Both the position numbers and the translations under genes were made by a program. DNA of 63,558 nucleotides, filler included, from Cercozoa sp. M6MM (lineage: Eukaryota > Protista > Endomyxa: Ascetosporea), in the NCBI GenBank assembly GCA_040357565.1. It is 11 parts of 11 records of this genome, joined end to end, with 100 filler letters (N's around TTAATTAATTAA, not from the genome) between each part and the next. Parts side by side here need not be neighbours in the genome. Positions count along the whole stretch, not along the records: positions 1 to 18,598 come from JBDODJ010000231.1; positions 18,699 to 22,169 come from JBDODJ010001440.1; positions 22,270 to 25,483 come from JBDODJ010001556.1; positions 25,584 to 28,745 come from JBDODJ010001579.1; positions 28,846 to 30,179 come from JBDODJ010002054.1; positions 30,280 to 36,672 come from JBDODJ010000746.1; positions 36,773 to 52,507 come from JBDODJ010000301.1; positions 52,608 to 58,203 come from JBDODJ010000878.1; 3 more parts are not named here. One strand, written 5' to 3'. Under the pieces are notes generated by a model. That model did no database searches, had not been told where the DNA came from, and worked only from the letters and a program-made list of their open reading frames with translations. Below, piece by piece: positions 13,388 through 61,413 of this stretch (position 1 is the stretch's first letter; every line of letters starts with the position of its first letter).

Positions 13388-16300
13388 ATGACCCGACGTG
13401 TTGACGTCGCAAGCTTGCTGCAAGGTCTCGAGGACGAATATGGCAGCAATTACCTCGATGTAGACGGCTGGCTCCAGGTATTTTTCGGCTATGTGTTTGT
13501 ATACCTTTTGCGCGTGCTATGTAACGCTGACTCGTTGTTGTGGCACGTGCAGTGGGGTGCAGCGTGGGTGGACTCCACGGTCGACTGGTTGAGCGACGAG
13601 CACATCCCGCCAGCTGCCACGGCTCCGTCTGTTCCGGCCGGAGGCGACACCGCCTTAATTCGAAAGTACGTCCGGCAGGTCGACCAGCTGTCCGACGCGT
13701 TTCGCAAGCGGCAGCGCCGCGTGCGACCGTCGCCAAGTACGACAACGTCGTCGACATCGGAGGACGAGAAGGACGACGAAACGCGAGTGCTCACATCGTG
13801 GCCCGAGCAGGTGCCGCATGTTGCATCGATCCCTGACGACATGCTCACTCTGAGGTCTGTTTCCTTTTTGCTTTCAAGCTCAAAGCTTTGTGATAGCTTC
13901 GCGAAGCTTTGTGATAGCTTCACGAAAGCTTTGTGATAGCTTCGCGAAAGCTTTGTGATAGCTTCGCGAAAGCTTTGTGATAGCTTCGCGAAAGCTTTGT
14001 GATAGCTTCACGAAAGCTTTGAAAGCTTTGCAAAACCTTTGCTTTGCGATAGCGTTGAAAGCATTGCGAAAGCTCGAAAAGCTTTGATTTCGCTTGGACA
14101 GCTTTGCGAAAGCTCTGAAAGCTTTGGATGTTTTCGGTTCCTCACTGAAAGCTGATACTTGTTGCTGCAGGACCTGCCGAGAGCACGTTCCGACAGAGTT
14201 TTTCGCTCCAGTTTCGTTGTTTTCCGTGTTCTCGTCCGAGCCGTTGCAGAACTTTGATCAGAACGTTGGCGGTGGGTTTCTTCTCCCCTTCGGAACTGTT
14301 GATTTGAACGTGTGCTGGTGTGGCTGTAGACGGCGAGTCGAAAGAAGAAAGCGACGTCTCACGCATGAGCGATCTCGTCGAGTGCGCGCTCATTCGACAG
14401 GTGTCGCTGCGTCGCAGCGCTTTCTTCGGCGCACTCACGTCGCTGCAGGAACTTTCTCGCGAATCTCATGAAACGCAGCAACAGGGTACGGCTCGCTTTC
14501 ACGTGGTTTAGGTCTTCACATGCTTTCACACGTTTTCACATGCTTTCACAACGTGCTTAATTGTTTGTCCCTGTGCTTTGTGGGAAATGACGTTATTCTA
14601 TACGATTTCTCTGCATTTTCTCGTTGCTTCACGTGTGTATTTTGTGCTTTCGCTGAGTTTCGTTTGCTTTCGCTGCCGTTTCGCATGTTTCACTTCGCTT
14701 CCGCATGCTTTCGCGATATTTCACGGAGCTTTCGCTTGCTTTCGCTTGCTTTCGCGTTGTTTCACGCAGCTTTCACGAAGCTTTCGCGTACTCTCGCAAA
14801 GCTTTCGCTTATTCTCGCAGAGCTTTCGCGTTGTTTCGAAGCTTTCGCGTTGTTTCGCGAAGCTGTTGCGTGTTTCGCATGAAGTCGTTGGTGTGTGCTT
14901 GCGCAGTGGCGGCGGCGAGACAGGTGCTGCGCGAGGCGCGGCAGAAGGCGGCAGAACCGCTGGAGTTGCTGGCGCTGAAGAAGCGCGAGAGACGCGCTTC
15001 GCAAGTGCTGCAACTGACGCGAAAAGTGCGCGAGATCTGCGTGCTGCGAAACAAAGCGAAAGCTGCGCTCGGAAGCGACGATGTCGAAACTTGCGCCGCT
15101 GCGATTCAACTCGCTTGGCAGATTCGGTATTTCACATTGGAGGCAGGGAGGTAGGGGGAGGCTAAACTTGCTAGTAAGCATGTTGGTACGACAGAAGCGA
15201 GGACGCGCGATTGAGTGGCGTGCAATGTCTCAACTCGGTCGTTGAAGAACTCAGTGAGTGTCGGCAGATGCTGCGCGAGCGACTGATGCGACGCATGCTG
15301 CGTGTACTGCTGCCACCTGAGGAGATACATCGTGATGTGTACTGCCTCTCTTTTACCCTCCAATTTACCCCATTTTACCCCCTATTTTATCCCCCCATTT
15401 TACCTCCATTTTATCCCCCATTTTACCCCCTATTTTATCCCCCCATTTTACCCCCTATTTTATCCCCCATTTTACCTCCATTTTATCCCCCATTTTACCT
15501 CCATTTTATCCCCCATTTTACCTCCATTTTATCCCCCANNNNNNNNNNNNNNNNNNNNNNNNNNNNNNNNNNNNNNNNNNNNNNNNNNNNNNNNNNNNNN
15601 NNNNNNNNNNNNNNNNNNNNNNNNNNNNNNNNNNNNNNCCCCCCCCCCCCCCACAGGGAGGAGTCGTCATGCCAGGCAGCTGCGCCGGTGCTGCGGCAGT
15701 TGCTGCTGCTGCGCGAACACGAGTGCGTGGCGGACTCTCTGCACGCAGGCATGAGTGAGCACTACCACGAGTTGCTCAAGACGCGACTCACTGACACTGT
15801 GACTGAGTTGGACGGCCTCGTTGACAGCAGGCACGGCATCAAGTCGCGTGTGCAGGTTCCTACCTTTTCGCCCCCTGTTTACCCCCTGTTTACCCCCCTG
15901 TTTACCCCCCCCTGTTTACTCTCATGTTTACCCTCTGTTTACCCCCCTGTTTACCCCCCTGTTTACCCCCCTGTTTACCCTCTGTTTACTCACATTTACC
16001 TCCCTGTTTGCCCCCCTTCTTAGGCACTGCGAAGTGAGCACTTCCAGCGACTGCTGGGTCGTCTGTTTGCGCCGCTGTTGGGTAAAGCTTCACCCCTCCC
16101 CCTTTACACCCCCCCTTTACCCTTTACCCCCCTCTTTACCCCCCTTTACCCCCCTTTACCCCCTCTTTACCCCTTGACCCCTCTTTTACCCCTGTGCTTT
16201 CTCTTTACCCCCCGCAGTGTCATGGCGCCGACTGGACGACGGTTGGAGCGCGGTGCTGTCGCAAGTAGAATCGGCCGACCGCGCGGAAGCATTGATGGCG

Positions 16301-18438
16301 CACTTTTGCGCCGCGCGGAACGGTGAAGTCGACAGTGCGCACGTGCGACTGGCGACAGTGCTCAAGTGGCACACGTGCGACAACCTGTCGCTGCGTCAGG
16401 CGACGGCACTGCAGCACAGCGTTTCTTCCTTCGCTCGGCAGTCGGAACTGCTCTGTGCGCGGCCTGTGCTGCCCCTCCGTGCGGTATGCTGTCTGTATGT
16501 ATGTCTGCATGTATGTCTGTATGTATGTATGTATGTATGTATGTATGTATGTATGTATGTATGTCTGTATGTATGTATCAATGTATGTCTGTATGTCTGT
16601 GTGTTTGCATTTGTGTTTGCTTTTGTGTTTGCTTTTGTGTTTGTATTTGTGCATGTGTGTATGTATGTGTGTATGTGTATATATATATATGTATGTCTGT
16701 ATGTCTGTATGTATGTCTGTATGTCTGTATGTATGTATGTATGTATGTATGTATGTCTGTATGTCTGTATGTCTGTATCTATGTATGTATGTCTGTTTGT
16801 CTGTGTGTATGTATACTATATGTATGTACTTGTGTCTCTATCCGTTCATCTATCAATCTATCCATTTATCTGTCCATACCTACCTACCCACTATCTACCC
16901 ACCCACTCACCTACCTCCCTATGTAAACCAGGCGTGCACCCGGGTATTGGAGCGTTTCGCCCAACATGCGCACAAGGACGCGCTGACGCACATCGACAGC
17001 GTCATGAGTCTGGAGCGCTGGCGGCGCACACAGGTGCCGCGGCACATGCAGGCCATGCTGGACGCGGCTCTACTGACTGACGGTCGCACAGGCAGTCGGC
17101 ACACGGACGAAGCTCTGGTGGCACAGGTCACTGTGCGCACGAGTGACTTCTTTGGTCAGTCACAAGACACCCAGATCACAGAGGTCACACAGGGCTCTGA
17201 GGCAGTTGGAGCACTCAGTTTCCAGGTCGCCAGTGCCGCCTTGGTGCTGCTGCAGCGTCTGCAAACTCTCGTGGCCACCTGTCAGGCGCTCAGTCTGCCT
17301 GGTGCGTGTTTTACCCCCCCCCCACCTATTACCCCCTACCTTTATCCCCACTACCTATACCCCCCTCCCCGCAGGTAGTGTCCAGGCAGCCGCCTTGATT
17401 CGGCGATTCGATCTGCGTTGCAAACAACAAGTGCTACAAGCTGGCGCGATTCGGACTGCGCAGTTGTCGGTAGTTTTACCCCCCCCCCCCAGTTACCCCT
17501 CAGTTATCCACCCCCTTACCCCCCTGTTTACCCCCTCCCTCCTTAGAGTATAACGGCTCCGCACCTGTGCATAGCGTCGCAGTCGATCGGTTTCGTGCGT
17601 TGGCTATTGCCGCTACTGCACGAGGCTTTGGACACTCGTTCCGACGCCGTGAGTTCCCCCATGCCATGCTTCCTTGCCCCCTTTACCATACCTTTTTACC
17701 CCTTACCACCCCTTACCCCCCTCGCCACCCCGGCAGTCGCGCGCGCTGCAACTGAGCGAGCTGCGGCACATTGGCGATGAATTGCTTGCACACAGAGGTA
17801 CAAATGGACCGTACTGGTGTACAAATGAGCCGTCCAACTGGACAGTTAAATTGAGGACATCGTGCCGTTCAAATGGACCGTACATATGTGTAGCCCAGTT
17901 GCGGCGCAAACTGGCGTCGATTCTGCGCGGTGTGTGCGACTCGGCGGTGGCACGTGTCGACTCAGTGACCACTGAGGGTTCCACTGACGGTAGCGGCAGT
18001 GTCACTGGGATCAGCGCCGTCAGTGGCAGTGCCAGTGGCACCGTCAGTGTCAGCGGCGACAGTGTCAGCGATCACTCCGACCACGTGGAACCGGCGGCCG
18101 CACTCGTCGATCTCATGCGACTCACTGGTACGACCTCACTGGCGTGTGCTCCACTGGGACATGTGCTACACTGGGACATGTGCACGGTGTGACTGGGGCA
18201 CGTGTGCGTGTGTGTATGTGTATGTCTATGTGTATGTGTCTATGTGTATGTGTCTATGTGTATATGTGTATGTGTATGTGTCTATGTGTATGTGTATGGT
18301 ATGTGTGCAGACAAGCTGTGCCGCATCGTGCGGCGCGACCTCGAGTCGGCCGAGTCGGCGCGCGTGCTGCCGCTACTGGACGCCGTGCTGGCCGAGTCGC
18401 TGCCGCGCGCGCTTCGTGCGCCCAAGCCTGCTGCCAGG
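13388..18438 (+). CDS. VPS54: GARP complex subunit VPS54-like, 3' truncated at contig end
   Basis: C-terminal exons give LIRRFDLRCKQQVLQAGAIRTAQL..ITAPHLCIASQSI, matching the Vps54 motif FNSRxxQLVLGAGA..GLKxITAKHLALASQS. The N-terminal part has VPTEFF and LSRMSDLVECALIRQVS..FFGAL. Confidence 0.8.
13882..14030. repeat. Intronic tandem array of a 22-23 bp unit AAGCTTTGTGATAGCTTC(G/A)CGA(A), about 6 copies plus a degenerate tail
   Basis: Directly visible inside a VPS54 intron. The first junction forms the perfect palindrome AGCTTCGCGAAGCT. Confidence 0.95.
14515..14885. repeat. Intronic degenerate (GCTTTCGC/TTTCAC)n array
   Basis: Many TTTCGC/TTTCAC words inside a VPS54 intron, related in vocabulary to the 13882 array. 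Confidence 0.8.
15350..16215 (+). repeat. Three intronic (TTTACCCC/TTTATCCCC)n arrays
   Basis: At about 15350-15538, 15870-16000 and 16095-16213, each between VPS54 exons. Confidence 0.9.
16490..16920 (+). repeat. Intronic compound microsatellite (GTAT/GTCT)n followed by (CTAT/CTAC)n
   Basis: Directly visible. It is the source of the spurious MYVC-repeat ORFs. Confidence 0.95.
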
Positions 18439-18598
18439 GTAGCCACTTTCTCAGGGGGTGTGGGCTTGAGGCCTACCTACCTACCTCTACCTACCTACCT
18501 ACCTACCTACCTACCTACCTACCTACCTACCTANNNNNNNNNNCCTACCTACCTACCTACCTACCTACCTACCTACCTACCTACCTACCTTACCTACC

Positions 18599-18697
18599 NN
18601 NNNNNNNNNNNNNNNNNNNNNNNNNNNNNNNNNNNNNNNNNNTTAATTAATTAANNNNNNNNNNNNNNNNNNNNNNNNNNNNNNNNNNNNNNNNNNN
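18599..18697. other. Artificial contig linker (N-run, TTAATTAATTAA, N-run); also at about 22214, 25528, 28790, 30224, 36717, 52552, 58248, 59996 and 61487
   Basis: Identical 12-mer with stops in all six frames, flanked by equal N-runs. Genes on either side are truncated and unrelated. Confidence 0.97.
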
Positions 18698-18719
18698 NGG
18701 GGGGGGGGGATTAAAGAAT

Positions 18720-20715
18720 ACCCTCATCCTCATCGAGCAAGTAGGCCATCTGGCGCTGTCGGAAAGTCTCAAGTGCTTGTCTACACAAGTGGGTAAAGGG
18801 GGTAAAGGGGGTAAGGGCAAACGGTACCTGGCATCAAGGCCCGGGTTGGCAGCGCAGGTCTTGTGGATGGCATCGCACACGGCGTACACCAGGTAGCGGT
18901 CGAACTGGTCGCGTGGGAACTACAGACACAGGCAGAAATACCAAGTCTCTTATTCCTACCTTCTCCACCCCTACACTATCACTCGATCACAAGAACACGC
19001 AAGCCTACCTCAGCATCTGAGAGGGCATTGATACGGTCGTACATGTCGCCACCTGTGTCATTAACGTATACAGAACTACAACACAGTCGCGCAAGGGCAA
19101 GGTACTGGTGATGGCGGCAGCCCACTTGGGCATGTGCTCGCATACGTCCATAGCTGCTGCTCGTGCCTGTCCAGAGGGGTATCGGGGTATGGGGTTAAAG
19201 GGGTGGGGTAACATAGAAACATACCAGCATGCGCATGACAGGTCGCATCTCGAGCACTTCCTCTCGCGTCAGAGGCGCCAGGATCGGAATGTCCGACATG
19301 CGCAGCCATCTAGGACGGGGGGGGGGGGTAAGGGGTATAGAGGGTGGGGGGGGGGGTACCGCTGGTGCCACATGTCCCAGGTGCTGGCGTCATCGTCGGG
19401 CACGCACAGCAGCTCGTGGAACAAGAAAGCCAGCGGCTTAAAGTACGCGTTGGCCATGCCCTGCTCGACTGCCGACCTCTGTTCGTATAACAGTATAAAC
19501 GTACCACCAGAAGACTATAGAAAGGGGCGTCAGGATTCGAACATGACTGTACCAAAAAGTCACGGCGATCGTCCTCGTTGCGGATGTGGCATAGGTGGCG
19601 CAGCCACTTGATGGCCACGTTCGGCTCCAGCAGTTTGCTCGACTGCGTGCCTGAGGAGAGGGTAACGGGGGTAACGGGGGGGGGGGTAAAAGTACCATCG
19701 AACTCCTCGTACGTCATCGGTTGACGCGCCTCGAAGTCACTAAACGGGGGGGGGGGGGGGTAAAGGGGGTGGGATGGGAATACACAGCCTACCTGTCAAA
19801 GTTGCGACGCATAGCGAGCTTCTGCAGACGAAGTTGCACGCCGACCTAAGTAAGTACATGTTGTGAGTCCATATGTACGGTCAGAATGGACCGGTGCGGA
19901 CTGATAAGGGAGTACCTCCTTGAGGACTTCGGCAAAGTCGACTTCCTCCTGCAGCGCATACCTGTCCAGAGCCTACAGACGCACGTGTATCAGGACAGGA
20001 ACAGGGACAGGACAGGAGGTCACTTTGAATATGGGAGAGCACCTCCTGCAGAACGTTCTGCGCCTGCTCGTAGAAGGAGAGGTGCTTGATGCGACTGCGC
20101 AGCAGTTCCACGCCGCCTTGCATCAGCATGCGCTTGGTCTATGTGTACATCTAGTTCTCTGCTTTACCCCCCTCTTGCCTTCTTTTGCGCCACCCTCTTA
20201 TTCTTCACAAAGACACAGGGAGTACCTGCTCGGCCGACATGCCTTCCTCGAAGAGATGCTCAAGGTCATCGTCGTCCACTGCCAACGGGGGGGGGGGGGT
20301 AAAGCAACTCAAAGAAGCAAAAGCACAAAGGAAGCTACGCTGGTTGAGAAGAACTGCAGCCTCGTAAATGTCATCCTCAGTGAAGTACAGCGTCTGCAGC
20401 GCGAACATCTCCGGTTCCTGTACATAAGGGGGGTTGAGGGGAACAAAGAACGTAAAGAGTAAGGGTAAAATGAGTAAAGGAGGTAAATGCATACACACCT
20501 CCTCGTTCACCACGGCCTGTTCCATCGCCTGGCGTGACAGCTCACTGCACCCGGGGGTTGTATCATCAACATACATATACACAGTGTGCTAGATAAACTC
20601 AAAGGATACCTGGCGTGCTTGAGACGCTCCTCGCGCGCGACTTCACTCATGTCCTGCGCCAGCATCTCGGCCGCCTGGACAGAACAGATACACATACACA
20701 TACATACACACACAC

Positions 20716-20756
<41 letters not shown>

Positions 20757-20967
20757 TACTAGATGACTTACCTGGGACGGGCCAACCTTCTCGGTGCCGC
20801 CCATCTTCTTCAGTTGAAACTCTGGGTTCTTGCGCGCCAGCACGGCGGGGTCTGTGGCGAAAAGGCGCGCCTACGAGCCTCGAAACGGTGTAGATACACA
20901 GCCTCCAAAGATCAACACATGCGAAACACACATTGCGTCGCGCAAGTCGGCGCGAAAGCAGCATCAT
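18720..20967 (-). CDS. Hypothetical multi-exon alpha-helical protein with a mitochondrial-type presequence, 3' truncated
   Basis: Starts MMLLSRRLARRN. About 15 or more short exons with GT-AG boundaries (e.g. EPEMFALQTLYFTEDDIYEAAVLLNQ; MANAYFKPLAFLFHELLCVPDDD). No family recognised. Confidence 0.7.
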
Positions 20968-21781
20968 TGTAAGTCCGTCCGTGCTGTCGAAACTTGCAGG
21001 ACACGTGTACTCTAGTGCGGCCAGAGCGTGCAGGATATGTAAGCTGACGCTGCCTTAACAATGACGACGTATAGTCCCGGCTCCGGTTCGGAGCCCATTC
21101 TGCATAGGACTGCTGGCTCACTTGCAGAATCACTTTTGCAGGTTGTGCCTTAGCCCAACTGCATACTAAGGTGCTTGCCACTGACCGGAACGCTAGCCCC
21201 GAAGCCTCGCAAAAGCCGCAATCTAAAAAGGAGTTGCCTCGGCAGTCGGTGTGATCTGTCGTGTTCCAGTACGACCACTGCGGTTACGTTCACCGCACCC
21301 GACCGGCATCGCGTTTCCACAGACTGGGTGAGTTTTCTGCACCTTGCTTGCATTTCTTCCGTGGTCGCAGCCACAGCAGGCCCAGCGCTTGGCTTGTTTC
21401 ATTGATCTTTTTATTGTGTTGACCACTTGCAAGTGGCCGTTTCTCGATGATTCTCGCGACTTCTTTTGACCTGCGCTGATCGGTGTTTGTTGGTGGAAGT
21501 GCAGTTTTGAGTGCTGAGTTTGTTGGCCCCGCTTTCACGCCCAACGAGGCTTGCGCACGTGTGTGTCGTGTTTGTGTCGTTTGTGTCTTTGTTTTTCGGT
21601 CGTTTCTCTGATGCGTCGTCAGCGTCGCGCGTCTTTGGGCAGTGTGCGTTTTCCCGATCCTTTTCTCGCATCAAGCGAGCTGCCCATCGTTTCTCATCGT
21701 TCCTTGCACATTTGCTGGTGTGGACGAGCATTTCTGGTGCCGTCGGAGCATACGCGTTGTGTGTGTGTGTGCGCGCTATAG

Positions 21782-22062
21782 ATGTCGCAGCTCCAAGAGA
21801 CACCAGTGCTCTCGCAAGAACCGGCGCCCATGCAGCAGTCAGGGCAGGCCGGCGCTTACACGCCAATGGGTCCTGTACCCGAGCTGCGTGGCGATGAGGT
21901 GTGTCACTGCTCTAACATCCTTGTCATTCACACTCGGGCCGTGGTGTTTTCTCAGGTGAGATGCGGTGATCGGCTGACTCGCAAGGAAGACAAGCGCGTG
22001 CAGAAGCGCGTGCGCGCTGCCGTGAAGTCGTCGTCGACGTCGTCTGTCTTTGCTGTCGAGAC
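21782..22062 (+). CDS. Hypothetical protein, first two exons (truncated)
   Basis: MSQLQETPVLSQEPAPM..GDE | VRCGDRLTRKEDKRVQKR with an in-frame GT-AG intron, then a (CT)n intron at the contig end. Confidence 0.55.
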
Positions 22063-22067
22063 TGTAA

Positions 22068-22166
<99 letters not shown>

Positions 22167-23696: not shown

Positions 23697-24102
23697 TTTC
23701 TGAAACCCTAGCCGAGAGACTCTAAAAATGACGAACCAACCCGACCAGGCAGCAGTCCGTCCTTTGAGTCGCCACTGGAATGCCCACCGATATCAGCCTC
23801 GGTGCTGGGAACTCAGTTCAGTGGAAAGTATCAAAATGGTATTTTCTTCGCTTCCGCGCGGAACTCGTGTCGCTCGGATTGGCTTTCGACTGACCAGCGC
23901 AGACCGAACTGGCTGAACAAATCGAGCGAATGCATCCGCTCGCCTGCAGCGCAACGTAAGCGAACGAAAGAGAAGTCCCTACGCTACTAAATTAGAATTA
24001 CGTTGAAACTAAACGAACGGAAGGAAAGCCAAGCGGTCGCGAAACTTCGGCTCGCGGCGGTCGGGTTAAAGCGACGCGACGAGCGTATTTTTTATTTGTT
24101 AA

Positions 24103-25430
24103 TCAGACGATTCCGCCCTGTCGCGCGCGATGCAGCATGACGAACATCAGCACGACCGAGAAGAAGCCCAGGAGCACTGCAATCCATCACAGGGAGGTCA
24201 ACATAGTGCGTATACTACTGGGGGAAGGGGTAGGGGTATGGGTACAGTTCTCAAGTGAGACATCCTGCAGTGCATCGCGCAAGAAAACGACACCAGGCAG
24301 CCTCTCGACTAGCTGAGTGATCGAACTGGCAGCGACACCGTCAGTAACAGTGTTGATGAGGTTGGAGATACTCGAGAGCAGCAGTGACATCTATGCTCAT
24401 CCATTCATACTACCACTAACAAACGGCAAGTGAGACAGGTACCCTGGTGACAGCACTGTCCAGTATGCTGATGCACAACCGCCGCAAGGCCGAAATTGTG
24501 TCTCTCGGGTGCGTTACCGCCGTGTACATCGTCTGGGGTAAGAGGAGGTAAAGCGGAGGGGTGGGGATAAGGGGGAGTACAGACGCAGCGGCACGCACTT
24601 CGAGCAGCGCGAGCGATAGCGCCACCGCCGCCACGGCTTCCTCGTCCGCGCGGAGCGCCGCCCGATAGTACGCACGCGCCACTCTTAGGTCCTGCAGGAC
24701 CAGACGTAGGGGCTAAGTGGAAGGATAAAGGGTCAAGTACCGAGCCAACGCCGTGTGCAAAGTCGCTCATGTAGCCGAGGTTCCACATGGCATGTGCGTC
24801 ACCCCCCTCTGCCGCTAGTCTACGGGGGGGGGGGGGGGGGGGAAAGGAGGGGGTAGGAGGGGTGGGCGAGTGGAGGGTAAGAGTGCCACCTGTAGTACTT
24901 GGCAGCAATGCGCACCTCCTGCGAATACTCAGACAGGTCGAAAGAAGGCAGACCACGCTGGTCGAGTTCGAGTTCGCTGCCACTGTCGCTGCCTTGGCTG
25001 CCTTCGCTCACAGTATCGTTACTCGAAGTGCCTCGCGACACCGCGTCCAACAATCCACTGTCGGCACGCCGCGGCATGTGTGCCACGCTCCTATGGGACA
25101 ACACATTGGGGTAGAGGAAGGGTAGGGATAATGGGAAAGGTAGGGGTCAAGGGTGGGGTAGGGGTAAAGGGTGGGGCAAAACCGTTGCGGTGGCACAGGC
25201 GCACTGGTGACAGCGTCGGCCTTGAGTGCACCGTGCGAGTAGGGCGCCGGCATCGACCACGTCTGCGCCGTCAGTCGCGGGAGCTCCGGCTCCCTGCAGG
25301 TTAGGACAGTCCAAATTTTAGCCAGTCCATCCGGACCAGTCTGGTCCTTCCTGGTTAGTCCATTTGTACCAGTACAGATCGCCCAACTGACGCGCTGCGT
25401 CCGCCACGCGCTGCTGCGCCGCCATGTGCA
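24103..25430 (-). CDS. SEL1L: SEL1L/Hrd3 ERAD component, C-terminal part (Sel1 repeats plus C-terminal TM); 5' truncated
   Basis: AMWNLGYMSDFAHGV, DLRVARAYYRAAL..AVALSL, and a terminal TM LLLGFFSVVLMFVML before TGA at 24103. Confidence 0.8.
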
Positions 25431-34558: not shown

Positions 34559-35565
34559 TTCCAGCCGCAAGAAACTCACATGGTCCCGGTGAGCGAGCCA
34601 GGCGAGAAAAACCGCCTTATTTTCGCCAGCCTTTATACGTATATACATCTACATGTCTAGAACCGCACCTGGCGTTACGCTCAGCACTGAATTTACTTGT
34701 ACCGTACCAGGTACTCGTATAAGCTGTTCCCGACTCAGTTTAAATCGAGACGTACCAACCTTGAAGATGTCCTGGGGAACTTCAAAAGGCGAGTTGGATG
34801 GCCCACTGTTACGAAACGATATTCTCCATCCGGTCAGTCAGATCTGTCTGAGTTCTGGTGCTCCGCGCGGAAGAAAGTTATTCACCTAGGACCTTCAGAA
34901 GAGTGGTGTATTGTGTTTGTCTGACTGACCTCGAAAGAGCATTAATTTTGCTCCTTTCCTAAAAAGGCTCTCTATTAACCAGCAGAGAGAGCCTTTCTTT
35001 TTCTCTTTTACGTCCCTCCTTCTCCTTCCTTCCTTCTTCTGACTACCGGGCCTCTCTTCCTTCCCGACCAGTCCACTCCCTGTACTTTGCCGACCCTATC
35101 TTGGGGTAACTACATCTGAACGGACTACGTCTAAATTTACTGACTCAATTCTTCTTCACATCGATTCCATTTGTTTCTTGAGTCTTTTTCCTGGCATAGT
35201 ACTTTTTTGCACTGTCAAAGCCTCAATTTCTGAAAGGCTGCGGCAACACCACCCTAAATGGACGGTGGATTACGTACGGCCATGAGCATGTGATCCATCC
35301 CGGGACTAGTACAGGGAAACTACATAGTTGGTTTCTGGTTGGCTTAACTTGACCAAGCTTGTAGCATGAGTCAGAAGCACCGTCACGGGAGGGGTCGATC
35401 CAACACTGTCACTTGAACCATTTTGTTGCTTGTACTTTTCCCATTTGAAGTTCTATAGAGAAGCTAGACGATGTATTTTGGGCAACAAAATTCTGACCAC
35501 GCTTCTGAAAGTTGCTGCTGCAAAAAAAGCTGACTAAACAAAGTTCGTTTTTAGAGGTACACAGC

Positions 35566-38267: not shown

Positions 38268-39638
38268 ATGGCAAAGAAGTTTAAGCGCGACCAGAAGCGC
38301 GTCGACGAGGCGCTGCGTCAAGAAATCGGTGCCCCACTCTACATCAAAAAGAAAACGAACAGTCTCTTGCGCATATGCATATCTTGTTCCGTTTTGCATT
38401 GTTTTGTTGTGTTCCGATTGTATGATAACGATTGTTGTGGGTTAGAGCGCCGATTGGTGGATGAAGCGCCTCCGCGCGGAAGCAACCAGTTGACGGAGGA
38501 ACTGCAGGCGCGCGTGGATCGCGATGGCGGCAAGGCCGTGCAGGTCAAGCCGGTGTGCTTGCACTTTGTCTGAGATGTACCTTTATGTGTGTGTGTGTGT
38601 GTGGGATCTGGTGGTTTTTGTACAGGAGGAAGCGAGTGCACGTGTGTTCAAACTGGCCACGAACTTCTCGGAACTGCCGCTGAGTCCAGCCACGCAGCAG
38701 GGTCTCAAGGAGGTGTGTGCTTTGTGTCTGTGTGTGTGTCTGTATGTGTGTGTGTGTGGATAGAGATGTAAGTTACTGTGTGTTGCAGTGCAAGTACATT
38801 CGCATGACGGACATCCAACGCTCGTGTCTGCCGCACGCGCTGCGCGGACGCGACGTGCTGGGCGCCGCCAAGACCGGCAGCGGCAAGACGCTCGCCTTTG
38901 TTGTACCCGTGCTAGAGCGACTCTGGCGCGTGCGCTGGTACGCACCCTCTCTACCTATGTCTGTATATTGTACTATCGTAGATACATTTGTTGTATGTAT
39001 TTATCGCTCTACCTGTATTCTATCTACCTATCTATCTATGTATCTATCTACCTATCCATCTATGTATCTATCTATCTATGTATCTATCTATCTATGTGTC
39101 TATCTATCTATGTGTCTATCTATCTATGTATCCATCTATCTGTGTATCCATCTATCTATCTGTGTATCGATCTAATATGTATGTATGTATGTATGTACGG
39201 TAGGAACAAAGCACTCGGCCTAGGAGCACTGATCGTGACGCCGACGCGCGAGCTGGCGCAGCAGGTGTTCCAAGTGCTGCTCGACGTCGGCCGGCTGCAC
39301 AACTTCTCGGCCGCGTGCCTTACAGTAGCCTTATATATACATATAATATGTACATTCATTTATTTACATTATATATATATATATCCCTAATATATGTAGG
39401 GCGGCCGCAGTGCTGAGGACGAGAAGGCGCGCGCCAGCGGGATGAACATTGTAGTGGCTACGCCGGGCCGTCTGCGCATGCACCTGGAGCAGACGCCGAA
39501 CTTTACGCTCGAGTCGCTGCAGGTGCTCGTGCTCGACGAGGCCGACGAGCTGCTAGACTCAAATTTTGAGCTCGACATGGGCGCCATCCTGGACGCCTTG
39601 CCTCGGTGCATTTGCATATCAGTATACCTTAGATATAC

Positions 39639-44003: not shown

Positions 44004-46443
<2,440 letters not shown>

Positions 46444-49012: not shown

Positions 49013-49745
49013 CTACCAGGTCACGGCGGCCCATACCATCACCTTCTTGCCGCCACGACAGCGCTCCAAGTCGGGCACATTCTGCTGCGCTTTGCGCCAC
49101 ACAAACTCGCGAAACTTGTCGCCTCCACCTACGTGCAATGGTAAACTGCGATAGAAAAAAACCACCCGACCGGGTTTTTGGTCGATTCTACCGGGTTTGG
49201 CTGGTTTCTACCCGGTTTTAGCCGGTTGCGACCGGGTTGGCTCTGTTTGCCGGTTGGATCCGGGCTGAGTGGTCACTCTCACTCAGCCGTTTTTTGGGGG
49301 CGATCACGAAAATACAGCAACCCGGTCGCGAATGGAGTTGTGTTTTTGGGTCTCGGGCGCTCAAAAAAGTCACTTTATTTTGAAACCTCGTGAACTAAAT
49401 GCGTATTGGCGGATGCCAACTCAACTTTATAACAATAACACACAGTGTTGCCGGAGAACAAGCTGTATTAGCAAAGATTTAACGGCGCCGGTAGTGACCG
49501 GTTATTTTTTTGTTTATCCAGTGATAAACGCGCCAAGTAACGTACTCTTTGTTTATCACTAGAAACTAGACGTAGACCCTATAAGAGGGGGCTAGTAGCG
49601 ATTTTCGCCTTGTTACACTCGCAAAAGATAGTCTTCTCAAGGCTCGGCGCTCCGTTAATTAAGACCGCGTTGTCCACGGGCGGTACTTACAAAAGGGATG
49701 GGTTCCTGCCGTGCGACGCCGTGGCGGCTTGACTCCGGCTCGGAC
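49013..49745 (-). mobile_element. Decayed IS630-Tc1-mariner transposase remnant, interrupted by a ~450-bp repeat-rich insert
   Basis: 49130 to 49013 reads GDKFREFVWRKAQQNVPDLERCRGGKKVMVWAAVTW* (the VWR..GG.VMVWAA segment following the first catalytic Asp). About 49745 to 49615 reads RAGVKP..KYRP..*LTERRALRRLSFA (the LT..RL.FA linker). Confidence 0.55.
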
Positions 49746-52294: not shown

Positions 52295-52326
52295 CTGCAC
52301 ACACACACACACACACACATATATAT

Positions 52327-52367
<41 letters not shown>

Positions 52368-52607: not shown

Positions 52608-53531
52608 GCCGGGCGCCAAGCAGCACGCGTCGTGTGACCACTCACGGTGCGTAAAGAAACCGTCCTGCTGCGGCGGCTGTTTCAGCACGACCTGTCGCGT
52701 CAGTGGCCGCTTCTGATCGCACGTGCTGTCGCCAATGCGCTCGATCCGGAAGGCGCAAAACCGTTTCGTGAAATCGCCGTCGTCGGAAAACTCAAGTTTC
52801 GCAAAATCCGCTCTGCGAAACACACAAGACACTCAAAAAACAAAACACAAATCAAGTTGAGATGATCACTCGGAATTAATGTCGGCAGAGTGGCGATATG
52901 TGGGCCCCTCTAAAACCACTCGGTCCACAATATCACTCACACAGTTATGCGGCCGCCATGGGCCCTGATCAAGAATCCAAAATTCTGATCAACTACTCCA
53001 CTTGAGAGGATACTGTATCATCTTCTTCAGTTATGCTCAGATGGGGTACCTGGTGTGCCAAAGTGTAGGCCGTAACGCGCACGTTGGCGGGGATCGCGAT
53101 GGCACCTACCCAGCATTCCTACCCAACAGGCGTTATGCCTCAAGTGAGGTCCGAGGCAAGGGGGTGCTGAGGTACATTGGGCTCGACCCAGTCTTTGACC
53201 AGCGGCAAGCGACGAGAGCCGAGTTCGGGACGAGACATCTCCTGAACGTTCAAGCATCTGCACACGGGTGAAGAAATCATTTGCAAATGATTCAATCGAC
53301 AATCTGGTCTCACGTGTTGTGCGCCAATTCGCAAGCATCCGCGCGGAAGACAAGTGCCTCGTCAGAGACACGCATCTCATGCCCGAACGGCTGCCGGAAC
53401 ACCACCTCTGTCACCTCCTGTTGTTGCCACAGATCCGTAGACACAGTGGCAGTAGAGGCTTTGCTCAGAAAGGACATGGGTACGCCAGTGACGACGTGCA
53501 CGCCGACCAGCACACACAAAACGCGCCACAT
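52608..53531 (-). CDS. Hypothetical secreted Cys-containing protein, 3' truncated
   Basis: Signal peptide MWRVLCVLVGVHVVTG, followed by several GT-AG-bounded exons. Confidence 0.55.
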
Positions 53532-53975
53532 GTCTTGTCGTTTGGGCGATCGGCACTAAATTTCTCTCTAAACCTCCTTTCCAGTGTCTATGCTACAAAT
53601 ATGCTTTAATCAAGCAACTGGCACTGCTCAACGGAGCAATCTGCTTTTCGAAGAAATTAAGGCGGCGAAGCTAGCAGAATGGGATGGTTTGAGTGCCTTT
53701 TTGCACATTTTTGTCGTCTACAAAGCATTGACTATCGATTACTCAATCGAAGAAGCTTCATTGGTTGAGCTGTAGCGAGAGTGACCACTTGTTTATTTTT
53801 GGCTCTCCCCTCCTCGGATACAGTAGCGCCTTTTGGAAGGTGTCTCGCTCCACCGTGCCTGCCCGACACGTGTGGGTGTGCGTGAGCGATTCGTAGTCCG
53901 GATCTGAGTGCATCGGCTTGAAGGCTCGTTTTTTTGTCTTGCCTCGATCGTTTTCGTGGCCGAGCGGCGTCTCAA

Positions 53976-56900
53976 ATGACGTTCTCGATTATTATTTCGG
54001 GTTCCGATGGCGATCGTTCCTTCGACGTGAATTGTGTCCTAGTTCTCAAGAAGGTGCTTAACTGACTGGAAGTTGTTTGTGCAGACTTCAGCGGTGCTGC
54101 CGCAGCAGGCAGGTGCCGTCATGGTCGAAAGCGTCTGCGTCGACACCGAAAGCGACACCGAGATCGACGAAATCGCGAGCGACGTCTCCGAAGAAGCCAT
54201 CGTACACGAAAGCGACGAAGCGAAAGCGCTGGAGAGCCGAGACGAAGCTGATGACAGCTTGTGCGACTTTGACCTGAGCGAGCTCGATCACTCGGCCATT
54301 GTGATGCTTCGCATGCTCGTTCTGCAGCGACAGCGTCTCGCGCAGCTTCTTGGTGTGTTCAAGCTTCTCCGCACCTTTTAATTGTGAATTTGCTTGAAAG
54401 CCTTTCCTTTCACGCTTTTTTTCAGCTCTCTTTGTTTGCTTTTGAGCTTTCCAGCTGTATATTTAATAAGAATATTTTAAAAAGAATGCTCAAGGTTATT
54501 TGCTGGGTTGAGCAGCAGTCAATCGAAGCACGTGTGAGCAGAGGCCGCACGACGAACGGCGTCGCCGCTCGCTGCGGCAGTTTCACGCGAAACTCGCACT
54601 CAAGCAGAGCACCGAAGACGCCGTTAGCGACGACGAAAGTATCATTTTTTTCTTTTGTCGTTTTGTCTTTGTTTTGAAAGCTCAGCTGTGTTGTTGCAAC
54701 AGGCGTTACAGTAGATCTGGCGACGAAACGCGTCGCGCAAAGCTCGCACGAAACCAAACACGAAACCAAACATGGAACGAAGCAAAACACGAAGCTTAAA
54801 ACAAAGAACGAAGCAAAGCAAAATACAAAGCACGAAACCGAACTGGACACGAAGCGAGCACCGGCAGTTCGAGTTGTGACGTCACCGAAACGTAGTGGCG
54901 AGCCCACGTTCTTCCCGTCGCCGATGCAGTCAACACACGACTGCTCACAGTCGAAACTGGCGTGCTCCACGATCGACGAGAACAAGGAGCACGTGCCCTC
55001 AGAAGACGGACTCAGGATCGACACACAGGCCGAAATGGACCATACACTGACTCCCACGCAGCAGCCACTCAGTGTCGAACGGCTCAGTGGCTTCCTCTGG
55101 AAGAAGAATCCCGGTGGTGTGCGCAAGTTGCGAACTTGGTATTGCGTATTTCCTGCCATCCGCGCGGAAGCCTGCTAGTTTTTCAGCACGCTCGTCTGAT
55201 AGCACTCAAATTCGTGCTCTGATTGTGCAGGAAACGGCGGTGGCTTTCGCTCAGCAACGGTTGTCTGCGATATTCGGTATTTCCTGTGCTTCCGCGCGGA
55301 AGTTCCGATCTGTTCTGTTTGCAATATTTTCTGTTTGCGCTGTTTAGATTGAAACTCGCGGTGTACGACGCGTGCGAGGCGTGATTCCGCTTTCACAGGT
55401 GGTCAGTGTTCGTACCCATGGGCCACAGAAGCGTCCGCGCGGATGTCGTTTTGACGTGCTGTGCACTTCTGCGCGCTTGTACGAGTTCCGCACAGCCACG
55501 GTGAGCTTGAGATTATATCTTTTGATTGATTGGGTGTTTTGGTGTTTCTTGCCTCGATCTGTGTTCTCTGCATTAGGAGGAAGATTGCACCAGATGGGTC
55601 AGCATGCTGAAGCAACTCGAGCACCGTTTCGCTTCCTCCACTGGTACAAATTTACAGACTGGTTCGTTGGGACACTCACTTGCAAAATAAATCAGATTTG
55701 GTGCAACGCGCGCAAAATCTCGACGACTCGCAGTACGTCGCGCCGAGACGAAGCGTCCGCACTGCCTGATTTCGAGTCTGGGCCCAGCCGAGACGGATTT
55801 CGAATTACACACTCGCGGCTTTTCCAACAATAGTTTGCGTTGCCGTGGCTTTTCGCCTTAGACAGTTCAGTCTACAAGCAAAGAAACCAACGTAGCTTCC
55901 CTGAGCCTCCAGACCCGGGTGGGGAGTTCACAATATATAGAGCAGTGGTATATATAGAGCAGTGGTGGTGCGCCTGCGTGTGCTGTAGCTACAGACATCA
56001 GATAGCTACCGCAGTTGCGCCGATCTAGTCGTCTAGGTCAGACCAAGATCAGAATCAATGGAGTTTCCTCAAGACACGTCATGTGATGCCTTGGTACCAA
56101 GGGGTGCTGGCTGCCTGTGTTGTGTTTTGAAGACTAAGCGGTGCTTTTTTGGGACAGGAGCGTGCGCGTGCCAGAGTGCTGCGGGACGCGTCGGTGGTGA
56201 CGCCGGAGTTTGTGCAGTCGGTGCTTCGCGCTCAGCCGCCTCGTCTCGCGCTCTACTACGTCGGTGGCTTTACCCCCTTTTACTCCCCTTACAACATAAG
56301 CATACACGCATACATACATACATACATACACATACATGCATACATGCATACATATATACATACATACATACATACATNNNNNNNNNNTACATACATACAT
56401 ACATACATACATACATACATACATACATACATACTACATACATACATACATACATACAAGATATACAGACATAGATATGTGTAAATAATCCTGCAGACGC
56501 AGTGGACAAGCGACAGTGCAGAGAAGCAGAAGCCACACTGCGCGCGCAGGTGGACCTTCTGGAGACCTGTCTTGCCGTGTTTCCGACCGACTCGTTGACC
56601 TCGTCGCTGCAGTTCTCGGTGGCCTTTATGGTAGGCACCTAGTTGGGGGGTAAGGTGGGTACAATGGGGTAAAGGGGGGTAAAGATTGTGTGCCTTGTTA
56701 GATGCGAAGCTCCGGCGACGTGGCACGTGCCGTGATGAGACTGCCCGACGTCTGGCAGTGCGTGCGACGACACGTGTATCCGGAACTGGCGCAGTACCTG
56801 TACAGTGTCTGTACGGTGTCTGTACAGTGTCTGTACTGTGTGTGTACCTGTACTGTGTACCTGTACCCTATGTTGTACTGTATGTTTGTATATGTGTATG

Positions 56901-58102
56901 TGTACTCAGTGAGTGGTGCTGTCGCGACTCGCTGAGAGTCGTGGTGCCTGTGCTACTGGAAGAAGGCATGCCGGGTACTTTGTGTATGTATATACCTACT
57001 AGGGCAGATACAGATATACAGTATAAATATAAATATATATATATGTATGAGTGTATTTTTGTGTGAGTATGCGAGTATGGATCGAGACATGTACGTACAC
57101 AATGTAACTGCAGAGACAGAGACGGTACTGTCACGTTTCTTGAGTCGCCTGGTGCGACTGGAGCGACCGCACGCGTGTCTGGACCTGCTGCACCTGGGCG
57201 TGTCTGTGCCACACCACCAGCAGGAGCAGTCCCTTCTGCAGCTGCTGTCTAGGTTTGTAGCCACCGAGGCTGTACCTCTGTACCGTCTACTACTGGACAC
57301 TGTGCCCGGCATGAACGACGATGTGGTACCCTATCTGATTATCTATATATATATATATATATATACATACATATACATGTATGTATATGTAGTTATATGT
57401 ACGTATATGCAGGCCCTGCTGTGTGCTTCCTACCTGTGCACGAGTGAGCGAGCCATGCGTCTACTGATAGTCACTGCGGATGATACCGATGATACCACTG
57501 TCAGTCAACACCGTCGCAGTGAGCACGTGCACCGTCCGATCACTCTGGGTCGGAACAGCCTCGAAAGTGTCGGCATCGCACTGCACGGCGTCTACTCCAG
57601 CGGTCGCAGTGTGGCACTCCAGGTACCTTGGTCCCTTCTGACTGAGTGACCATCTGACTGAGTGACCACTTGAATGACCACCTGACTGAGTGACCCCATG
57701 ACTGACCACGTGGCAGACACTGGAGCACGTGGCCAATGTGCCAGTCGAGAGTGAGGCAGGTTTTGGCCCTCCCGAACGGCAGACCGAGAAGCTGCGGCAG
57801 CACCTGTCAGGCACACTCAGCGCCGCCGCCGGTCACACCATCGCTGCCCTGCGTGTTGGTACTTTTTGACCTTCCACGCGAATGTAGATGCCGTTTTCTT
57901 AATGTACACAAGTGTCTCAGACGACCCGGACGACGCAGGTCACCGTGAGTACCTGTGCGTCCAGGCAGAGTTGCACTACCTCGTCTCGTGTACTATCCCT
58001 GCCTGCCTTGTTTATGCGTGTATCTACTACCTTGGTGTAGTGCCCAGGATTGGTGTGGACTGGTCGGGTCTGCACACGGTGCTGCAGGTCGTGTGGGAAA
58101 AG
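53976..58102 (+). CDS. PH-domain protein with acidic/low-complexity N-terminus and helical C-terminal region, 3' truncated
   Basis: LSGFLWKKNPGG..WKRRWLSL..LRY..RGVIPLSQV..FDV..RLYEFRTATEEDCTRWVSML is a complete PH signature. A 12-bp repeat at about 54745-54855 encodes HETK-like units. Confidence 0.75.
57638..57712 (+). repeat. Intronic array of CTGACTGAGTGACCA-like units
   Basis: About 4-5 degenerate copies. The reverse complement CACTCAGTCAG recurs at 59255-59300 and 59420-59485 in a minus-strand gene. Confidence 0.8.
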
Positions 58103-58112
58103 GTACTTCCCC

Positions 58113-58176
<64 letters not shown>

Positions 58177-58349
58177 ATACTCAGATACACTTAAAAATAC
58201 ACANNNNNNNNNNNNNNNNNNNNNNNNNNNNNNNNNNNNNNNNNNNNTTAATTAATTAANNNNNNNNNNNNNNNNNNNNNNNNNNNNNNNNNNNNNNNNN
58301 NNNAAGGGAATGGTGGGGGTAGGGGTAGGGGGTAAAGGGGGAGGGGTAC

Positions 58350-59935
58350 AACTGCCGCAGCAGACGCAGCTTGACAAGCGGCAGATCGTCGATCATCTCG
58401 GGCATGAGCACGATACGCCAGACCTCTCGCCTGGGGGAGGGGGTAAGAGGGGTAACGGGGGGGGGGGGTAAGACTACCACAGGTGCGCATGTGCGCCGTG
58501 ATGCAGCAGCAGATCGTCGCCGGAATGGTCACCAGAGTGGTCACCGGAGTGATCACTGCCACTGGCACTGACGGTACCACTGACGGTACCACTGGGGTGG
58601 TCACCCAAGTGATCACTCCGGAGAGCACGTGACAGCGCCGACACCAGTTGCTGCGACGACGTGCGCAACGACGGTCGACCGACGGTGCGACCGATCTGAT
58701 CACAGTGATCGCACACGTGCCACAATGATCGTCCAAATGATCGTACACGTGCCACAATGATCGCACACGTGCCACAGTGATCGCACCTCGAGTTGCGCCG
58801 CACGTGAGCCACCCGCAAACGCCATGCGCAGTCCGAACGTATCCGGCCGCCGCACCGGAAATATCGCGTCCTGCGTTGCTTCCGTCCTGCCCGGGGGGGG
58901 GGGGGTAGGGAGTAAAGAGAGGGTAGGGGGTAAAGAGGGAGAGGTAGGGTAAAGAGGGGGGGTACAAATCCGCACTCGGCCGCACGAGCAGCGGATTCGC
59001 GTTTTCGTTGTTTTCGTCGTCGCTGTCGCTGTCGCTGTCGTCGTCCAGCATGCCAGCTGCGGACAAGCCTGTCCAGACACAGACACTGCGCAGTACCTGT
59101 GCAGTCCCTGTGCAATACCAGCACACAGTACCACCAGACGGCCCGGTTTGTCCGAGTTCGGCGAGCGAGTGCCACGGAGCCTCGGAGGAAGGCAACTGCA
59201 GCGGAGCCACCCACCTGTTGTCACCCACCCAGTCAGACACGTGCCAAGTCACCCGCAGTCAGTCAGTACCACGTGCCAACTGACTGATCACTCAGTCAGC
59301 ACGTGATTAGAGAGAGAAACGCACTTGGGACACGCACGGGCCTTCCAGCGCAGCCATCGCGCGTCGTCGCGTAGTGCCGTTCGCAGAGCGCACCTGCACA
59401 CGTGTCCACCCACTCTGCCAGTCACTCAGTGGGCACGTGTCCACTCAGTCAGCACGTGCCCACTCGCACGTGCCCACTCAGTCAGCGACAAGTGCTACAG
59501 TTTGCGCGACTTGATGCCGCAGTAGTGCAGTTCCTTCCAACTGTGNNNNNNNNNNNNNNNNNNNNNNNNNNNNNNNNNNNNNNNNNNNNNNNNNNNNNNN
59601 NNNNNNNNNNNNNNNNNNNNNNNNNNNNNNNNNNNNNNNNNNNNNAAAGGGAGAAAGCTACACAAGCTGGCGCAGTTCGCCGACGCGTTGCGCCAGTTCG
59701 GGCGCCTCGTAGTCGACACTGCCACTGCTGTGAGCATGTGATCGATCATATTTAGGTACCAGTGGACACGTGTGTGTATCAAGTACCGACTGCCAGTGGT
59801 GCCGCCAGTGATGGCTCCTTTGGCACCATGTGACACGAGGTCGCCACGTGCGTTCCACCGCTCCTGCAGCGTGTCGATCTGACCGACGCCGCCTTCCAGT
59901 CGCGGCAGCGGACGCCGCGCCAGTCGGTTCGCACC
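58350..59935 (-). CDS. Hypothetical protein, internal fragment with S/G/D/H low-complexity segments
   Basis: GT-AG-bounded exons, e.g. RREVWRIVLMPEMIDDLPLVKLRLLRQL. No family recognised. Confidence 0.5.
58698..58790. repeat. Intronic ~20-bp array GATCGCACACGTGCCACAAT, 3-4 copies
   Basis: Directly visible. Each unit carries the palindromes GATC and CACGTG. Confidence 0.85.
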
Positions 59936-60164
59936 TGGGGGGGGGGGGGGGNNNNNNNNNNNNNNNNNNNNNNNNNNNNNNNNNNNNNNNNNNNNTTAAT
60001 TAATTAANNNNNNNNNNNNNNNNNNNNNNNNNNNNNNNNNNNNNNNNNNNNTACCTACCTACCTACCTACCTACCTACCTACCTACCTACCTACCTACTT
60101 ACCTATCTACCTACCTACTTATCTACCTACCCATCGGCATACCCTAATCTGTTGGTACACAACA

Positions 60165-61413
60165 GGAGCTGTTCGGTGCGCTGCGTTTCTCGGACGCACT
60201 GAAGCACCTGGAGATCGCGCGCGTCGACCCGCGCGAGCTGCTGTTTCTGTTTCCGTCGGTGCGCGACACCGTCTACCTGGCCGATCACACTGATGATCGC
60301 AAGATCAGTGACGGTGATCACGCTGATCGTAGTGACGGTAGTGACGGTGACAGGAGCGATCGCAAGTGGCGCAGCGAGTTTGACTTTTTCGGTGCCTGCG
60401 GCAACCGACTGGACCTCATCATCGACGCCGGTCTGCAGCGCCTGCAGGACCAGCAGCAGCACCGGTCGCCTGGCACCGTCGCGCACGGATCGGCGACACG
60501 TGGCCGCGGCATGACCTTTGCCGAGCAGGCCGCTACGGCCATGCAGAGCTACGAGCGCTTCCGCGCGGAAGCTCTGTTCGCGCTGTGCGCCTTCCTGTGG
60601 CAGTGGCGTTACTCGCACCTCGAGGTATACCCCTCCCCCATGTGACTAGTGTAGGTGTAGATGTTGAATTGCTGTTGGGGGTGTCAGGAGGACCTGCCGC
60701 TGCAAAGCGTTGTGGACACGGCGCTGCTGCTGCTGCAGATCGAGCTGCTCGGCATGGACGCCGCGCTGCGCCAGTCACTCGACGCTGCCGACCTGCCCTC
60801 GGTGGAACGCCTGCTTTTTCCGCGCAACGCCGTTGTCGTCTCGGCCGTGCGCGAGCGCCTCATGCAGGGTTTGTTCTTGTTTTTTTACAGCGTCCGCGCG
60901 CGAAAGTTTTTTTTGTATTTTTCTGCATCCGCGCGGGAGTTTTTTCGTCCGCGCGGAAGTTTCTTTTCGTCCGCGCGGAAGTTTCTTTTCATCCGCGCGG
61001 AAGTTTCTTTTCGTGTGCGCGGCAGTTTTTTCTGCATCCGCGCGGAAGTTTTTGTTTTTGTGTAGCCAAGGAGTACTACCTGCTCTCGCAAGTGCTATCG
61101 TCGAAAGGTCTGCCGGCGGTGCTGCAGCCGGGCAGTGGCGTCAGTCAGGCGCAGGCGACGCAGTGGCTGGACGAAGCACTGTCGCTGTGGACGCAGCTTA
61201 GTGCCGGCGAACTGGTCGATGTTCATGGCGACACCAGGTAGTCCTGACCCTCCCCCTGCATTAATATGGCTACGTGGCTACGAGTATGTCTGTCTGTACG
61301 GACACAGGAGTCTGCGCGACGCGGTGGCTACGCTGTCGCAGCTCGGTGCCGAGGACGCCGACGGACTGCTCTGGAAGTACGCCGGTCGATTGTGCAGAAT
61401 CAGCGCCCAGGAG
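60165..61413 (+). CDS. VPS39/TGFBRAP1(Vps3)-like tethering subunit, internal fragment
   Basis: FSDALKHL..VDPRELLFLFP, VVDTALL, LL.PRN, EYYLLSQVLSSKG..EALSLW and LLWKYA occur in the order expected for the Vps39_1/CHCR region. Confidence 0.7.
60891..61052. repeat. Intronic ~22-bp tandem array built on TCCGCGCGGAAGTTT, about 7 copies (4 exact cores)
   Basis: Exact TCCGCGCGGA at 60948, 60970, 60992 and 61037. Variants at 60893, 60928 and about 61014. Confidence 0.95.

Follow-up and report, generated by a model that had tools for sequence, protein, structure and literature searches.

A CG-rich palindrome iterated through exons, introns and intergenic DNA of a marine rhizarian amoeba

Highly iterated palindromes that run through genes and the spaces between them are known from cyanobacteria, and the DNA described here raises the question of whether a eukaryotic nucleus can carry a signature of the same kind. 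The window under study is a stretch of 63,558 nucleotides made up of 11 scaffolds of Cercozoa sp. M6MM, a marine rhizarian amoeba, in which the 10-bp palindrome TCCGCGCGGA recurs in exons, introns and intergenic DNA. All statistics come from the ~62 kb of scaffold sequence in this window; the scaffolds are joined by ten linkers of the form N44-TTAATTAATTAA-N44 (between 18599 and 61542), and distances that span a linker carry no meaning. Two genome papers establish that Cercozoa sp. M6MM, a member of Apofilosa (Rhizaria), goes by the name Lemnamoeba sinaloensis at present (PMC13746701; PMC11069148). The available text of the first describes a 27-Mb genome of six chromosomes, with 53% G+C and 13 introns per gene, which is 84% genic, contains many simple repeats, lacks canonical telomeres and introner signal, and has 10 unclassified terminal inverted repeat (TIR) families on its list; the organism is cultured and near-homozygous, and has been sequenced with PacBio HiFi reads and assembled into six chromosomes (PMC13746701).

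Results

The palindrome far exceeds chance expectation

Counting an intronic tandem array as a single locus, the 13 exact copies of TCCGCGCGGA fall at 10 separate loci on 5 of the 11 scaffolds, and there are 17 instances of the 8-bp core CCGCGCGG in the window, on 6 of the 11. An initial annotation of this DNA had reported 13 copies on five contigs, nine of them outside the array, and all were found where it placed them. Its statement that 16 of 17 cores are followed by A was borne out (the exception, at 60929, has G), and the 12-, 14- and 16-bp extensions of the symmetry that it described at 23852, 55289 and 60557 are present. Three of the one-mismatch copies it listed have their starts corrected to 16278, 16310 and 45346 (the annotation had given core starts), and two additional one-off copies, absent from it, lie at 526 and 47740.

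In 100 dinucleotide shuffles of the window, TCCGCGCGGA appeared 0.07 times on average and never more than twice, against the 13 observed, and Markov models of orders 1–4 predict 0.11–0.15 strand-counts, against 26. The expectation climbs to 1.1, 5.1 and 19 strand-counts at orders 5, 6 and 7 because models of these orders begin to learn TCCGCGCGGA itself. With tandem repeats masked (54,634 bases remain), 9 copies stand against 0.05–0.07 expected, a ~130–170-fold excess in this window, and TCCGCGCGGA and words that overlap it become the top dispersed words at lengths of 8–12. A comparison with GC-matched 10-bp palindromes points the same way: among 160 such words, 140 are absent, 17 occur once, one twice, one three times, and TCCGCGCGGA 10 times (array counted once). 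Together, the shuffles, Markov models, masking and palindrome comparison rule out chance and CGCG richness as the cause of the excess. The claim that composition leaves the word unexplained therefore stands, since the observed/expected ratio stays far above 1 when CGCG frequency is modelled (Markov orders 1–4). The density of TCCGCGCGGA in the window is 161 per Mb (95% interval, 77–296), the range for the cyanobacterial palindrome HIP1 being 300–2700; extrapolation to 27 Mb would give about 2,100–8,000 sites. Assembly error is an unlikely source of the word, as contigs of run X1 equal the window, with no differences, at six copies (53338, 55159, 55291, 55434, 60560 and the array), an agreement that is not independent because the window DNA may itself derive from that run.

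The site is graded, two-fold symmetric and longer than ten base pairs

None of the 17 CCGCGCGG cores lacks the T/A flank on both sides. Beyond this flank, 11 of the 20 half-sites at the 10 loci have A at +1 (p = 0.002), 17 have G at +2 (p = 7e-8) and 9 have C as the third outside base (p = 0.057), with nothing significant past +2. The consensus is therefore C-N-TCCGCGCGGA-N-G, longer than the 10-mer recognized initially, and the site is graded, with an invariant 8-bp core followed outward by T/A, a weak A and a strong C/G, in two-fold symmetry. One-off variants of TCCGCGCGGA in the masked window outnumber expectation where the change falls on an end position (3 versus 0.4 expected; small numbers) and stay at background level at the inner positions (3 versus ~1.5). 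That the outer bases are fixed in identity, and not just complementary, argues against a general hairpin extension, and the C/G preference two bases out favors protein recognition over a general extension of palindromes.

The surroundings of the sites are otherwise unremarkable. CpG is not depleted, with an observed/expected ratio of 1.03–1.09 in the window and 1.07 near sites, and CGCGCG outside the CC..GG context, seen 44 times, is near the 33.6 that an order-2 model predicts for all CGCGCG. Four dispersed copies, when folded as single-stranded DNA, are at shuffle level (z, –1.4 to +0.7, DNA parameters); the tandem array folds strongly, through its repeated units alone; and no Rfam or tRNA match was obtained. 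One of six tests for a strand-skew flip at sites gave p = 0.011, with overlapping windows, and no A+T enrichment was found near sites in the window. Several contig breaks in run X1 (54692–54701, 55289, 55599–55610 and 60557) coincide with the ends of 10–16-bp palindromes of any sequence. This general effect does not depend on the word and points to fold-back reads in the library.

Exact copies prevail over codon choice in exons

The initial annotation held that the word is independent of reading frame and that protein constraint does not account for it, and both statements are upheld. Exact copies occupy two exon frames, the third is represented by a one-off copy, and others lie in introns and intergenic DNA; the exon-based and codon-degenerate tests speak against protein constraint as the cause. 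Across 65 hand-cut exon segments (12,159 nt), the exact word fills five of the six sites whose peptide is compatible with it, compared with 0.23 expected from the codon usage of the organism (four of five before one exon was added). Of 69 segments, 7 were removed because their frame was wrong; 2 more had no open frame, and one of these was restored with corrected ends. A test that needs no annotation, based on three codon-degenerate patterns, gave the exact word at 20 of the 33–34 strand-sites of each pattern, the other 63 variants averaging 0.21–0.22 strand-sites.

Alignments with homologues suggest how such sites come about. The DDX10 copy was compared with homologues from a search (104 of 120 hits used, mostly plants; 16 excluded for a missing N-terminal part). 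Against 103 homologues the site has no gap, and its flanking P and G are each kept in 100; the central P is found in 5 and the R in 8, so that these are variable columns. The SEL1L copy and the one-off copy in PCCB likewise align to solved homologues without gaps; column counts for the SEL1 repeat from 149 representative proteins were set aside because alignment to the query skewed them. Coding sites are best read as point substitutions at tolerant positions.

Loci are distributed without regard to gene structure

Five of the 10 loci are exonic, three intronic (one being the array) and two intergenic (Table 1). The succinyl-CoA ligase, DDX10 and SEL1L-like genes of the window match annotated M6MM proteins, and annotated proteins P0241 and P0121 bear out the earlier calls of SEL1L and DDX10, respectively; introns outside annotated proteins were inferred from reading frames. 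The earlier names "VPS39-like", "PH" and "secreted protein" are unconfirmed, Pfam having given no family on the single exon scanned for each of the first two, and the TPR gene beside 23853 is one that we take to be IFT56-like.

Table 1. Positions and contexts of TCCGCGCGGA copies and related features in the window
Feature	Position	Context	Remarks
Exact copy	23853..23862	Intergenic, upstream of a minus-strand TPR gene (157 bp before its start codon)	12-bp symmetry, 23852–23863
Exact copy	24645..24654	SEL1L-like exon, minus strand	Read L-R-A-D; gap-free against A-E-A-S of mammalian SEL1L
Exact copy	34862..34871	Apparently intergenic	~300 bp past the stop codon at 34559
Exact copy	38471..38480	DDX10/DBP4 exon 2	P-P-R-G within the conserved EAPxxGxNPL motif
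Exact copy	53338..53347	Putative minus-strand first exon, hydrophobic N-terminus	Read F-R-A-D; own gene model
Exact copy	55159..55168	Inferred intron (about 55139–55230)	20 nt past GT donor
Exact copy	55291..55300	Next inferred intron (55277–55347)	14 nt past donor; 14-bp symmetry, 55289–55302
Exact copy	55434..55443	Exon of PH-like gene (domain name by eye only)	Read R-P-R-G
Exact copy	60560..60569	Exon of putative VPS39-like gene	F-R-A-E; 16-bp symmetry, 60557–60572; fullest consensus form
Tandem array, one locus	60893..61051	Intronic	Period ~22 bp; exact copies at 60948, 60970, 60992 and 61037
Degenerate array units	60893, 60928, ~61015	Same intronic array, 60893..61051	
Two one-off copies	16278..16319	One exon	Cores intact, first base changed; 32 bp apart; D-R-A-E and A-A-R
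One-off copy	45346..45355	PCCB exon	Core intact; D-R-A-D; gap-free against D-R-I-E of 3n6r_B

Other repeats and motifs occur in the same DNA. Two introns of one gene (13882–14894) are filled with tandem repeats of palindromic units (AAAGCTTT, GCTTTCGCGAAAGC-like), and many genes of the window have an intron minisatellite of their own, a pattern suggestive of frequent local slippage. A 19-bp direct repeat (8347–8395) that lies upstream of a kinesin gene contains TTGGCGGGAAAA twice, a match to the canonical E2F site; by this match, E2F sites here look ordinary and distinct from the iterated word. CACGTGC, an E-box-like word, is mildly over-represented after masking (37 versus 16, at 21 loci), and a noncoding cluster of short inverted CCGGTT/ACCGGG repeats at 49169–49330 is possibly a transposon end.

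Occurrence beyond the window

Comparison of run X1 with the array at relaxed identity brought in 7 of 23 contigs at <95% identity. Their loose ends show other loci, including one complete further copy and one partial copy in tandem. One loose end resembles another gene's intron in which the word follows a GT donor; its depth of 413 is similar to the single-copy nuclear depth of the window in this run (378–617). Some of the GC-rich loose ends could stem from co-cultured bacteria.

Scans of sequence collections for the doubled word require two copies within ~35 bp and are weak tests of absence elsewhere. With this limit, dispersed iteration was seen on no contig of a viral collection (42 loci, mostly local arrays), in none of the 120 metagenome matches listed (a single cluster in 114; 40 short-flanked) and in none of the prokaryote loci (104 loci, 24 short-flanked; 11 extra clusters versus 7.6 expected). 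The metagenome contigs include, at 10 loci among the matches listed, a repeated element of approximately palindromic form in which the 10-mer occurs twice, ~30 bp apart; these contigs have 42–50% G+C, seven of them have microsatellites, and the element resembles a miniature inverted-repeat transposable element (MITE) of an unrelated eukaryote. Four viral contigs bear arrays with a 27-bp period (about 4600–5600) in which the word occurs up to nine times; these arrays probably reflect a protein repeat.

Literature searches gave no precedent within their reach. Judged from the search listings, papers with the 10-mer concern mostly hTERT and primer contexts and none concerns protists, and CCGCGCGG as a protist motif gave only unrelated listings. 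No eukaryotic highly iterated palindrome was found, the listings being all cyanobacterial and closed-access papers lying outside reach. The string "palindrom" is absent from the accessible text of both genome papers (PMC13746701, PMC11069148), the genome repeat library lying outside this search, and CCGCGCGG is absent from the four supplements of PMC13746701 that were searched. Within the literature searched, a single paper uses the genus name.

Discussion

The present study identifies, within a 62-kb sample, a real and sharp HIP-like signature in eukaryotic nuclear DNA. The reading that we favor, one to which we give about as much credence as doubt, is that C-N-TCCGCGCGGA-N-G is the selected binding site of a putative homodimeric DNA-binding protein and acts as a chromosome-wide landmark. 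Sites would arise by point substitution wherever the protein sequence tolerates them and would then be kept by selection, giving a few thousand per genome. Each subunit of the putative dimer would read one CGCGGA-N-G half-site, and the role would lie in chromatin or chromosome organization, as has been proposed for HIP1, and not in the regulation of single promoters; tandem arrays may have been added by local slippage in a repeat-prone genome. The symmetry of the site, its preference beyond a skipped position, its indifference to gene structure and the absence of CpG decay fit a protein landmark, and a fixed base that follows a loose one would be more readily explained by protein contacts than by hairpin-driven or stepwise extension. 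The further loci in run X1 count in its favor as well, and precedents exist in HIP1, with its selection and periodicity (PMC5861425), and in TGCATGCA, bound by AP2 proteins (PMC6631176, PMC3505466).

Several observations weigh against this interpretation. The copies show mild clustering (of the 9 gaps, 4 are <1 kb; p = 0.023), and no exact copy lies in the first 23 kb (largest gap, p = 0.095). Five genes entered the exon test for carrying copies, which biases it. Within the array, three of seven units are degenerate. The sharpness of the inner positions exceeds that of most transcription-factor sites and is equally expected under active correction. Finally, the dimeric reader is a candidate protein, and selection on the sites is a proposal based on a single genome.

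The sharpness of the core is also what a process of molecular drive would predict. On this view, Elhai's model of HIP1 transferred to a eukaryote, a DNA methyltransferase with sequence specificity would act on the CG-rich core, and repair directed by the methylation would turn near-matches into the full word, with no benefit needed. The exon sites are nearly saturated, the one-off excess is confined to end positions (3 versus 0.4), as Elhai reports for HIP1 in the accessible part of that study, and palindromic extensions are described there for HIP1 too (PMC4390886). The CpG ratio of 1.03–1.09, unchanged close to the sites, runs counter to such a process and gives no pointer to a methyltransferase; CGCGCG outside CC..GG is near expectation, so that no enzyme site of 4–6 bp is enriched by itself; and the C/G preference beyond a skipped position is hard to obtain by stepwise extension. 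No restriction-modification enzyme is known to us to have CCGCGCGG specificity. The string "methyl" is absent from the accessible text of both genome papers (PMC13746701, PMC11069148). On this evidence we consider drive unlikely, while giving it more weight than the other alternatives. A decidedly less probable source is templated copying, or the target of a recombinase or transposase, in which tracts would be converted from a master palindrome of 14–16 bp, such as the subterminal repeat of an unclassified TIR family. Graded likeness to the 16-bp form at 60557, the tandem pairs at other X1 loci, the 10 unclassified TIR families listed in the available genome text (PMC13746701) and the two word copies held by the unrelated metagenome element (10 loci among the matches listed) are consistent with it. 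Conversion tracts, however, would not leave +1 loose and +2 fixed, no similarity extends past two bases from the 10-mer, and the exon copies respect the protein sequence.

Descent from one family of transposons, MITEs or introners, combined with local tandem duplication, would suit the 4 of 13 copies that lie in one tandem array, the introns full of gene-specific repeats, and the three inferred introns in which the first copy lies 14–24 nt past the donor after a similar T-rich lead-in. The arms of the sites speak otherwise: among 13 sites (with the overlapping pair 16278/16310 set aside), the best local score of 24 equals the random median of 24, and the best anchored identity is 15 of 25, within the random 5–95% range of 12–16. 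Arms that share nothing past the consensus lead us to reject a transposon origin for the dispersed copies, and the DDX10, SEL1L and PCCB sites show no gap; the alternative named at the outset, that all copies might be fragments of one transposon family, thus fails for dispersed copies on both unrelated flanks and gap-free coding sites. The genome authors, in the text available, saw no introner signal (PMC13746701), and we regard such relics as the least probable of the explanations weighed here. Nearly as improbable in our estimate is a signal at the RNA level (a hairpin or splicing element) or the site of an ordinary promoter factor, for which one could cite the 8 of 10 loci in transcribed DNA, the intron copies near donors and the copy 157 bp upstream of a start codon. 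The transcribed share is expected because the genome is 84% genic, the AG flank stands on either side relative to transcription, the four folded copies are at shuffle level without an Rfam match, and just 2 of 10 loci are intergenic.

Palindromes that are indifferent to gene boundaries and bound by protein dimers are familiar from bacteria, where the 12–14-bp sites matS, SBS and NBS serve chromosome organization through MatP, SlmA and Noc, respectively. These are bacterial proteins with tens of sites per chromosome, whereas the amoeba word is estimated to have thousands. In fungi, Zn2Cys6 proteins recognize the pleiotropic drug response element (PDRE) TCCGCGGA, bound by Pdr1/Pdr3, and the CGCG-rich Rsc3/Rsc30 motif, which in yeast are promoter-restricted and degenerate. 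The amoeba word equals PDRE TCCGCGGA with two central bases added, and has in common with it everted CCG..CGG triplets and T/A flanks.

The word shares features with HIP1 (GCGATCGC), which, in the accessible part of the study of it, is also a CG-rich palindrome found within and between genes in any frame, with one-off variants at its ends and palindromic extensions (PMC4390886). The comparison drawn initially with HIP1 holds for the observed/expected ratio, which is ~150 for TCCGCGCGGA here and 55–228 for HIP1 in most cyanobacteria, and for the end-placed one-off variants, as far as the same source could be consulted (PMC4390886). A HIP-type word has an observed/expected ratio of 15–300, frame independence and end-placed one-offs, and TCCGCGCGGA shows all of these in this window. 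It is not HIP1 proper, GCGATCGC being outside the top 8-bp palindromes of the window; HIP1 is another word, prokaryotic and, at 300–2700 per Mb, apparently denser than the 77–296 per Mb estimated from this window, whereas the amoeba word resides in a nucleus with introns and has an extension that skips a position. The available text of one study reports that HIP1 is conserved by selection and periodically spaced (PMC5861425). Among eukaryotes, the apicomplexan palindrome TGCATGCA is comparable: an iterated octamer of protist nuclear genomes, in a simple-repeat-rich setting in Eimeria, it has protein readers, being bound by ApiAP2 proteins such as PfAP2-EXP, according to the accessible parts of two papers (PMC6631176, PMC3505466). 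TGCATGCA is an AT-richer 8-mer that those parts describe as over-represented in intergenic and repeat-rich segments, whereas the amoeba word has 5 of 10 loci in exons, where it overrides codon choice. Intergenic enrichment of the apicomplexan type is not seen for the amoeba word in this window, with 2 of 10 loci intergenic and 5 of 10 exonic.

A bolder version of the protein-landmark reading, which we put forward tentatively and with less belief than the landmark itself, is that thousands of copies of one 14-bp palindrome, imposed on exons even where codon and amino-acid choice suffers, are read by a dedicated dimeric protein or a long-specificity methyltransferase and organize six large chromosomes. 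If true, this would bring bacterial-style chromosome marking to a eukaryotic nucleus and give HIP1 a eukaryotic counterpart, in an organism that is already in culture. In cyanobacteria, palindromes that recur at the expense of coding sequence have been an open problem for three decades; the closest case among eukaryotes, TGCATGCA, has been described as intergenic, whereas the amoeba word is sharp and penetrates exons. The culture, assembly and HiFi reads of Lemnamoeba make the choice between a protein landmark and methylation-driven drive quickly testable, partly on existing data. The palindrome may also offer a handle on the chromatin biology of Rhizaria, of which little is known.

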